A stretch of 64,000 nt of DNA, from the NCBI GenBank assembly GCA_002778465.1, contig PFBV01000002.1, positions 2,312 through 66,311 of the forward strand, given 5' to 3'. The notes under the pieces are model-generated. The model was given only the letters and a program-made list of their open reading frames with translations. It was not told where the DNA came from and made no database searches. The translations under genes were made by a program, and so were the position numbers. This DNA comes from Candidatus Magasanikbacteria bacterium CG10_big_fil_rev_8_21_14_0_10_36_32 (lineage in GTDB: Bacteria; Patescibacteriota; Patescibacteriia; Magasanikbacterales; GWA2-37-8). Shown in pieces: positions 47,222 to 47,624 of this stretch. Position 1 is the first letter of the stretch; every line of letters starts with the position of its first letter.

Positions 47222-47273
47222 GGAGAGGTGGCTTCTGAGCTCCTGCCTGCCGGTAGGCAGGGGTCGAAAGCGG
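47222..47273 (+). pseudogene. duplicated tRNA-Ser 5' fragment (nt 1-12 and 18-29 of the tRNA) interrupted by a 20-bp palindrome
   Basis: GGAGAGGTGGCT and GGTCGAAAGCGG are identical to the intact tRNA-Ser at 47529. CCTGCCTGCCGGTAGGCAGG is inserted at the D-loop position. Confidence 0.55.
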
Positions 47274-47284
47274 TAATAAAATTT

Positions 47285-47527
47285 ATGTATTGCGTGTATT
47301 TTTTACAAAGTCTGAAAGATAAAGGTTTGTACATCGGAAAAACGAATAATATTAAACGTCGGTTATCTGAACACAACGCCGGTAAAGTTCAATCGACAAA
47401 AAGTAGAAAACCTTTTATTTTGTTGGGATTAGAAAAATACCAAACAGAAAAAGAATGTTTGGCGGCAGAATTAGAATGGAAAAAAGGATATAAACGCGAA
47501 CAATTAAAAGTTAGATATAGTCTATAA
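47285..47527 (+). CDS. small GIY-YIG nuclease-family protein (paralogue of 14865-15125)
   Basis: VYF...LYIGKT...RRLSEHNAGKV core. Shares the Y.L.S.KD..LY.G.T....R...HN.GKV..T..R.PF.L pattern with the other copy. Ends 1 nt before the tRNA-Ser. Confidence 0.65.
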   Translation: MYCVYFLQSLKDKGLYIGKTNNIKRRLSEHNAGKVQSTKSRKPFILLGLEKYQTEKECLAAELEWKKGYKREQLKVRYSL

Positions 47528-47528
47528 T

Positions 47529-47624
47529 GGAGAGGTGGCTGAGCTGGTCGAAAGCGGCACACTGCTAATGTGTTGTACGGCTCTCAAGGTCGTACCGAGG
47601 GTTCGAATCCCTCCCTCTCCGCCA
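47529..47624 (+). tRNA. tRNA-Ser (anticodon GCT) with long variable arm
   Basis: 7-bp acceptor GGAGAGG/CCTCTCC, anticodon loop CUGCUAA, T-arm GAGGGTTCGAATCCCTC, discriminator G plus encoded CCA. 96 nt. Confidence 0.85.

Follow-up and report, generated by a model that had tools for sequence, protein, structure and literature searches.

Nuclease cassettes that target transfer RNA (tRNA) genes are a known kind of element. SegB, a free-standing GIY-YIG homing endonuclease of phages T4 and T6, is encoded within a tRNA gene cluster (PMC2330249; PMC13096335) and recognises a 27-bp site built on the conserved T-arm motif of tRNA genes (PMC2330249). The enzyme promotes the inheritance of itself and of the adjacent tRNA region (PMC2330249; PMC13096335) and drives the segmental, tandem amplification of a tRNA-containing segment (PMC13096335). 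In bacteria of the candidate phyla radiation (CPR), ribosomal RNA (rRNA) genes carry insertions other than introns, with GIY-YIG or 23S_rRNA_IVP open reading frames (ORFs), at the tips of stem-loops (PMC11270868). Here we describe a cassette found in 64,000 nucleotides (hereafter the window) of contig PFBV01000002.1 from Candidatus Magasanikbacteria bacterium CG10_big_fil_rev_8_21_14_0_10_36_32, in which a hairpin-split copy of the 5' part of tRNA-Ser(GCT) and a small GIY-YIG nuclease gene precede the intact tRNA gene. The duplication of the 5' side and the obligatory hairpin are what is unusual, and no description of this tRNA arrangement or of the hairpin was found in the literature searched, which did not extend to subscription papers. 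The cassette in the window is likely a selfish element resident in tRNA transcription units and, with somewhat less assurance, we think it probable that it represents a widespread and apparently undescribed family of very small selfish cassettes within such units, mostly those of tRNA-Ser, in Patescibacteria.

SegB is the closest functional analogue, and the amplification that it drives parallels a tandem array at one related locus (L043). SegB is several times longer than 80 aa and carries a DNA-binding part. It is a phage protein for which neither a split tRNA 5' fragment nor a conserved hairpin has been described, whereas the present nuclease is chromosomal, 80 aa long, found in Patescibacteria and of the UPF0213/SLX1 branch. 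Integrase-borne islands and prophages that target tRNA genes likewise copy the displaced tRNA segment and leave one intact tRNA and a partial direct repeat, but they rely on a recombinase of the tyrosine or serine type, run to kilobases and repeat the tRNA's 3' part; the cassette has no recombinase, measures about 300 bp and duplicates the 5' part, and its partial copy is split by a hairpin. With the CPR rRNA insertions the cassette shares the host group, small GIY-YIG ORFs, residence in structured-RNA genes and the absence of an intron ribozyme. Those insertions lie inside rRNA genes, however, and the paper describing them mentions neither tRNA genes (0 occurrences) nor tRNA duplication nor a conserved hairpin (PMC11270868). 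The features of the locus are as follows.

47104..47126, + strand: intrinsic terminator of the upstream operon (10-bp stem with 6 G-C pairs, then a T-run)
47181..47209, + strand: sigma-70-like promoter TTGACT-17-TATTAT with extended -10 (TG), the best site of the region (10/12 matches)
47222..47241, + strand: fragment A, comprising tRNA-Ser nt 1-12 (47222-47233), a TCT insert (47234-47236) and nt 13-17 (47237-47241)
47242..47261, + strand: hairpin H, the 20-nt palindrome CCTGCCTGCCGGTAGGCAGG, exactly between D-loop nt 17 and G18
47262..47273, + strand: fragment B, tRNA-Ser nt 18-29, an exact repeat of 12 nt
47274..47284, + strand: non-tRNA A/T spacer TAATAAAATTT, 11 nt, without a Shine-Dalgarno sequence
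47285..47527, + strand: GIY-YIG nuclease gene, 80 aa, catalytic domain only, UPF0213/SLX1 branch (PF01541 match)
47529..47624, + strand: intact class II tRNA-Ser(GCT) (ARAGORN; Rfam 60.2 bits)
53222..53241, no strand assigned: solitary second copy of H, perfect consensus, in an ORF-free intergenic region

The terminator is the left limit of the cassette's transcription unit, and the promoter behind it is presumably the original tRNA-Ser promoter, now driving the leader, the ORF and the tRNA. All of nt 1-29 of tRNA-Ser(GCT) are duplicated about 300 nt upstream, the only interruptions being the TCT and the 20-nt palindrome, which in this leader forms an 8-bp stem and a 4-nt loop with a G.T wobble on the sense strand. 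An initial annotation of the locus had described a repeat of nt 1-12 and 18-29 split by a 20-bp palindrome; exact repeats were indeed found (47221-47233 = 47528-47540, 13 nt; 47262-47273 = 47546-47557, 12 nt), but that description fell short in that nt 13-17 (GAGCT, 47237-47241) and the TCT are also present. Its other structural points were borne out: the ORF fills the interval, its TAA ending at 47527 and the tRNA beginning at 47529, that is, with 1 nt between them, and the 5' side of the tRNA rather than the usual 3' side is used. As had been supposed, ARAGORN and Rfam call one tRNA only, the downstream copy, and neither calls the upstream fragment. A search of the window with Rfam returned no known RNA family besides tRNA and the start of a 16S rRNA, and no intron. 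A group I intron with a GIY-YIG ORF was accordingly rejected: Rfam matches no intron, the ORF has just 11 nt of non-tRNA sequence before it and 1 nt after it, and nothing breaks the downstream tRNA. The arrangement is shared by assemblies of this organism that were made independently (JGI, L231; Logan, L001 and L002).

A homologue search with the nuclease protein, keeping one genome per species, yielded 58 loci, mostly in Patescibacteria, with a few metagenome-assembled genomes carrying other automatic labels. A same-strand tRNA lies no more than 151 nt downstream of the ORF at 49 of the 58, and no more than 30 nt downstream at 45. These 49 tRNAs comprise 44 tRNA-Ser (22 GCT, 16 GGA, 5 TGA, 1 CGA), 2 tRNA-Tyr and one each of tRNA-Leu, tRNA-Met and tRNA-His; across the loci the intact tRNA begins 0-12 nt past the stop codon or overlaps it, and the reading frame enters the tRNA at 17 loci. 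When the 110 nt upstream of each ORF were compared, about 50 loci were found to have, immediately before the ORF, a 5' part that belongs to the tRNA of that locus and is split by a hairpin within one of the tRNA loops. The order of this leader is near-universal: the 5' end of the local tRNA, a GC-rich hairpin, a short continuation of that tRNA, a brief spacer and the start codon ATG. The layout also occurs on tRNA-Lys, tRNA-Asn and one further fragment (L171, L130, L222) in contigs recovered by searching with H.

Within the window's clade, fragment A is identical to the local intact tRNA at 28 of 38 loci, 4-26 nt of tRNA follow H, and the fragment ends anywhere from about tRNA nt 20 to nt 42; in every clade the fragment stops 5-26 nt past its hairpin, and the spacer before the ORF (0-25 nt) is not conserved. 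Because the fragment end is so variable, the position of the hairpin is the conserved landmark, and nt 29, where the fragment ends in the window and which had been put forward as a possible mark of a cleavage site, is unlikely to be one. The D-arm, proposed earlier as the target, is indeed the site at 34 of the 37 scored loci of the window's clade, but other clades use the anticodon loop or the T-loop, with fragments of up to 71 nt.

Chance is ruled out by recurrence, since some 50 further genomes show the same fragment-hairpin-ORF-tRNA layout and each fragment corresponds to the tRNA at its own locus. In another account, a local segmental duplication of long standing produced the second tRNA 5' end, and the ORF and the palindrome were captured by accident. 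Any one locus taken alone would permit this account; it is contradicted by the recurrence of one organised layout with a conserved hairpin in about 50 independent genomes and on at least nine tRNA species, and we regard it as scarcely credible. Fragments without the gene, which had been named as the finding that would favour such a duplication, were seen only as extra ORF-less modules beside ORF-bearing ones (L033, L138, L171).

The ORF product matches the GIY-YIG domain PF01541 over residues 1-71 (E 4e-18; 65.8 bits against a cutoff of 22.6), and Y5, Y16, G18, R26, E29, H30 and E62 are invariant in 22 sequences; these include the two tyrosines of the GIY and YIG motifs and the Arg, His and Glu that we take to map onto the catalytic residues of I-TevI. 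Searched against PDB, the family profile found the UPF0213 proteins BH0048 (1zg2, E 1e-12) and EF2693 (1ywl, 4e-11) and then SLX1 (9e-7); NCBIfam models of intron endonucleases and UvrC match weakly, far below their cutoffs. By these profile matches the nuclease is assigned to the UPF0213/SLX1 branch, and it shares with BH0048, EF2693 and SLX1 a single small GIY-YIG catalytic domain. We know of no association with tRNA genes and no cognate hairpin for the UPF0213 proteins. SLX1 acts in partnership with SLX4 and has a further domain. A classical homing endonuclease needs a DNA-binding domain, and a protein that consists of the catalytic domain alone fits a structure-specific enzyme more readily, so that a role as a classical sequence-specific homing endonuclease is not assured. 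A second GIY-YIG gene lies in the window at 14865-15125, its product 39% identical to the cassette nuclease. Carriage by phages was considered and set aside, a scan of viral contigs for the protein having given one weak match. The association offers a testable function for the widespread and uncharacterised UPF0213 branch of GIY-YIG nucleases.

The palindrome had been regarded as a mere interruption of the repeat, a description that does not survive comparison: it is a conserved, clade-specific component of the cassette. H is present, always as the same 20-mer, in all 40 loci of the window's clade, and in 34 of the 37 loci scored it stands after tRNA nt 16 (nt 16/17), just before the GG of the D-loop; it follows nt 8 in L012 and nt 9 in L016, and it is nested inside another H in L013, L041 and L059. 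Each GIY-YIG ORF clade has its own hairpin type. A double hairpin, GTCGCC-N6-GGCGAC with CCGCC-N6-GGCGG, occupies the anticodon loop (L049, L053, L042/43/46) or the D-loop (L044, L048, L057, L058), and other hairpin pairs are found on tRNA-Leu (L051, anticodon loop), tRNA-His (L056, D-loop) and tRNA-Ser (L054, T-loop), the last with the longest fragment, tRNA nt 1-71. The presence of H in every leader of its clade, together with the possession by each ORF clade of a hairpin type of its own, argues for a functional partnership of ORF and hairpin. H folds in every leader of the clade, with G.T wobble variants outnumbering A.C mismatches by 9 to 1, and one series of type-2 stems passes from GTCGCC/GGCGAC through GTCGCC/GGTGAC to GTCACC/GGTGAC (G-C to G.T to A-T). 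Since such wobble variants retain pairing on the sense strand, the folded species would be that strand, as RNA or as non-template DNA. An origin of H as a sequencing or assembly artefact was ruled out by its precise insertion into continuous tRNA sequence, its occurrence in about 40 genomes from independent projects, its natural variants and its nested copies. Small inserts after tRNA nt 12 were noticed in two independent lineages, the TCT at 47234-47236 of the window and one in the fragment of L008 (TGGGCCCGAGGCT); the position after nt 12 is also the hairpin site of the Tyr-associated clade, and these inserts may be footprints of other insertions.

H also occurs by itself. Besides the copy at 53222 of the window, six further solitary copies lie in the homologous loci (including L006:2328 and 2938, L017:202, L032:3043 and L035:2929), and solitary H was found in at least 120 metagenome contigs and 47 IMG/VR contigs (L061-L227), making at least 186 copies, in contigs whose GC content ranges from 29 to 71%. 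Only about 8 of the 186 matches listed adjoin a GIY-YIG gene. Some copies form the middle of longer inverted repeats, and some are embedded in repeats of low complexity. Around the listed copies there is no target consensus, the sole departure being a depletion of T at -1 and of A at +1, and no target-site duplication, 86% of them being without a flanking repeat. H thus looks, from its distribution in these contigs, like an independently spreading and widespread mobile palindrome. As separate observations, the consensus of the solitary palindrome is CCTGCCTGCCGG[C/T]AGGCAGG; up to five copies occur within 9 kb (L155, intergenic, near ftsK, recA and efp); H interrupts the variable loop of a tRNA-Met (L211:2239-2330; also L183, near 8616), where ARAGORN still calls a 92-nt tRNA; and it lies in the T-loop of a tRNA-Ala 3' fragment downstream of an intact tRNA-Ala (L118:336).

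These copies bear most directly on an alternative in which transposition is directed by the hairpin itself. The 80-aa SLX1-like, structure-specific nuclease would take the hairpin as its substrate, hairpin and ORF together being an autonomous element and the solitary hairpins its non-autonomous derivatives, as in REP/RAYT or IS200/IS605 but with a GIY-YIG enzyme; insertion would be into single-stranded loops of folded DNA, that is, the D-, anticodon- and T-loops of tRNAs and the tips of hairpins. The account draws on a hairpin type specific to each GIY-YIG clade, on SLX1 being among the nearest solved relatives, and on H standing alone in the window at 53222, in L006, L017, L032 and L035 and in more than 180 copies in metagenome and IMG/VR contigs. 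It would also accommodate H in the loops of other tRNAs (the variable loop in L211 and L183, the T-loop in L118) and nested in itself (L013, L041, L059), its different positions in L012 (nt 8) and L016 (nt 9), the ORF-less A-H-B modules of L033, L138 and L171, and the other GIY-YIG gene of the window with its 14-bp inverted repeat, which recurs without an ORF at 53097/53202 beside H. The systems after which it is modelled do share with the cassette a small nuclease gene, a specific DNA hairpin and many ORF-less copies of that hairpin; REP/RAYT and IS200/IS605, however, encode an HUH/Y1 transposase, have hairpins at both ends and produce no tRNA duplication, whereas the only ORF of the cassette is the GIY-YIG gene. 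The cassette has its hairpin on one side only, and the duplication of the tRNA is not explained by this model alone. Nor do the solitary copies of H, with no target consensus or target-site duplication, with only about 8 of the 186 listed adjoining a GIY-YIG gene and with contigs of up to 71% GC among their hosts, where this ORF clade was not seen, behave as the model would have them. We know of no GIY-YIG transposase, which counts against it as well. On balance we judge hairpin-directed transposition unlikely, though worth serious consideration. A shade more doubtful is the bolder statement that an 80-aa SLX1-like nuclease, together with the 20-nt palindrome cognate to it, constitutes a novel kind of autonomous mobile system, about 300 bp in size, which inserts into single-stranded loops of structured-RNA genes and survives in essential tRNA genes through duplication of the displaced part, the hundreds of solitary palindromes being its non-autonomous offspring; if true, this would be the smallest protein-coding mobile element in bacteria.

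That a selfish cassette was inserted at the locus is suggested first by relatives that lack it. In L229 and L230 a tRNA-Ser(GCT) lies beside the same 521-aa gene that in the window is found downstream of the cassette, with a TTGACT/TATAAT promoter 30-40 nt before the tRNA and with no fragment, hairpin or ORF between them, and the L229 tRNA is nearly identical to that of the window. The fragment in the window occupies the position expected of the tRNA relative to the promoter. The reading of the locus as an insertion-type element in the 5' part of a tRNA was thus upheld by the place of the fragment behind the promoter, by the empty sites that the initial annotation had proposed to look for, distant and with the tRNA inverted as these are, and by signs of lateral exchange.

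Such signs come from L234, the nearest other strain. Over the stretch that runs from the -35 box to the tRNA and takes in the fragment and the ORF, L234 and the window are about 96-98% identical (96% for the ORF), and the sequence upstream of the promoter is unrelated, so that the shared block starts at the -35 box. ComF, whose coding sequence ends about 430 nt upstream, is 80% identical between the two. The ORF has a synonymous divergence (dS) of 0.14 (6 synonymous changes at 46 sites) against 0.81 for ComF, which indicates that the block from promoter to tRNA is much younger than the surrounding chromosome. A 52-aa membrane ORF and a terminator between ComF and the cassette (window 46926-47084) are absent from L234, where the intergenic sequence is unrelated.

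In a protein tree, a rough one built on 75 residues only, clades track the tRNA type only in part: L004 (Ser-CGA) and L003 (Ser-GCT) are sisters, and L005 and L007 (GGA) fall among GCT loci, representing isoacceptor switches. Five copies carry premature stops (L018, L029, L057, L059, L060). At L043:2254-5225 there are 8.3 tandem copies, 100% identical, of a 357-nt unit made up of the GIY-YIG ORF, a tRNA 5' fragment and the double hairpin, and the contig of L042 ends inside an array of the same 357-nt type; the L043 array may be either a real amplification or an assembly loop. In L033 and L138 a second fragment-hairpin module without an ORF stands between the ORF and the tRNA. The unit of about 400 bp encodes the GIY-YIG ORF only, and Pfam scans of the unit and the flanking ORFs found no recombinase family, the flanking ORFs being ComF-like (phosphoribosyltransferase, zinc-ribbon) or without a match.

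Related ORFs differ with a ratio of nonsynonymous to synonymous substitution (dN/dS) of 0.02-0.07, which denotes strong purifying selection. Between L032 and L033 the A-H-B sequence is identical at 50 of 50 positions, H being unchanged, despite a dS of 1.1 in the ORF and unrelated flanks. In L036 and L020 the fragment differs from the neighbouring tRNA and resembles the fragment or the tRNA of a sister genome; the conservation of the leader is therefore not accounted for by gene conversion from the tRNA next to it. These comparisons are evidence, at the level of sequence, that both the ORF and the leader are functional. They could also be taken to describe a domesticated nuclease that benefits the host and is co-transcribed with tRNA-Ser, with the fragment and hairpin forming an RNA leader rather than a scar of mobility; the leader might then be a 5' stabiliser, an autoregulatory hairpin that binds the protein, or a competitor for pairing with the 3' half of the tRNA. 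The low dN/dS, leader conservation well above neutral expectation, wobble pairs favouring the sense strand, the robust folding of H in every leader and the single promoter of the whole unit would all suit such a gene. Yet its presence varies among relatives, many different tRNAs are occupied by fragments that match them, some copies are pseudogenes and others stand in a tandem array, the block is much younger than its flank, and the folds show no common sequestration of the start codon. We therefore consider domestication distinctly improbable. Sequestration of the start codon by the leader, entertained as a mechanism in its own right, was dropped because it is inconsistent among the folds of the loci.

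Returning to the selfish cassette, we infer how it moves from the arrangement of its parts. The cassette would arrive by duplicative, recombination-based insertion at a tRNA loop, either through a homing-like repair of a double-strand break or through a single crossover with a circular or tandem copy of fragment, hairpin and ORF. Insertion by recombination would necessarily leave one intact copy of the tRNA, which is essential, and one truncated, hairpin-bearing copy. Either route would account for the fact that all products seen keep an intact downstream tRNA, and under either of them unequal exchange between the duplicated 5' segments could give rise to arrays. The nuclease would be expressed at a low level, by read-through from the tRNA promoter, as is suggested by the missing Shine-Dalgarno sequence and, in one subgroup, by a stop codon that lies inside the tRNA and would be removed by RNase P; the nuclease would provide the break or nick that drives the spread. 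The hairpin would act in cis, possibly as the recognition structure of the nuclease; it might also shield the left repeat from cleavage, or break up the direct repeat and so prevent loss of the ORF by recombination.

Three simpler models of insertion were rejected. A staggered cut with target-site duplication predicts neither the exact start of both copies at +1 nor the obligatory hairpin; a model in which the element carries B does not predict that B matches each local tRNA; and a purely local duplication is contradicted by L034, L053 and L020, where the fragment differs from the neighbouring tRNA.

Several observations weigh against a selfish cassette inserted in this way. The intact downstream tRNA retains any target borne by the tRNA, which leaves classical homing immunity unaccounted for. 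Fragment B matches the local tRNA in most loci, as models in which the element carries B do not predict, and the fragment differs from the adjacent tRNA in L034, L053, L020 and L036; with B matching mostly but not always, no single insertion model fits all loci. The protein, at 80 aa, has no DNA-binding domain, residues 1-71 being filled by the Pfam match, and its dN/dS is as low as that of housekeeping genes and would fit a domesticated gene as well. H is not specific to the cassette, given more than 180 solitary copies in contigs of 29-71% GC and with no target consensus. The empty loci L229 and L230 are distant (45-47% identity in the 521-aa neighbour protein), and their tRNA is inverted relative to that of the window. 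No polymorphic empty allele was found in the same species, all contigs with an identical neighbouring protein carrying the cassette, and no cleavage site or circle was seen.

If the reading as a selfish cassette is right, a compact class of selfish elements inhabits genomes that are already minimal and resides in tRNA genes that are essential, and often single-copy, without destroying these. With its conserved hairpin and its duplication on the 5' side, the cassette provides a defined system in which to study how a nuclease without a DNA-binding domain finds its target. In annotation, the tRNA 5' fragments and hairpins account for pseudo-tRNA signals and contig breaks at tRNA-Ser genes in assemblies of Patescibacteria.

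Some further features of these loci deserve mention. In the clade found on tRNAs that begin ...TCGCATAG (L005, L007, L009, L010, L015, L016, L022, L026, L030, L058), the ORF lacks its own stop codon; it continues for 14 nt into the tRNA and terminates at the TAG within GCATAG, so that cleavage by RNase P would yield a non-stop mRNA. At a site equivalent to that of the cassette, L228 (184-700, minus strand) has a 115-aa 23S_rRNA_IVP ORF between the promoter and tRNA-Ser(GCT); this ORF is flanked by low-complexity direct repeats (gtaatttgtaattagta...) and is accompanied by no tRNA duplication.

Elsewhere in the window, the first of the two GIY-YIG genes (14865-15125) is bracketed by a perfect 14-bp inverted repeat, CCCCGTTAGAGATA / TATCTCTAACGGGG, at 14848-14861 and 15109-15122. 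The 10-mer core of this repeat forms an inverted pair, 53097-53106 / 53202-53211, around about 100 ORF-free bases next to the solitary H, and it is found again at 19770-19779, giving 5 copies in the window against 0.02 expected by chance. The repeats suggest that this may be a second type of GIY-YIG element with an ORF-less derivative. The intergenic region at 52870-53750 is nearly 900 nt long, lacks ORFs of at least 70 aa and matches nothing in Rfam; terminator-like hairpins lie at its borders, and both H and the CCCCGTTAGA pair fall within it.

Lastly, inserts lie on the other side of the tRNA, downstream of an intact tRNA-Ser, in L011:406-604, L031:1422-1597, L041:2684-2854 and L006:2838-3125. 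They measure about 150-180 nt (about 250 nt in L006). The L006 insert also contains H and, the one of the four to be scanned, matched no Rfam family. In each, an inverted T-arm copy comes first and a direct repeat of the 3' end of the tRNA, from the T-loop to the end, comes last, and by this structure they appear to be a mirror-image form of insertion.

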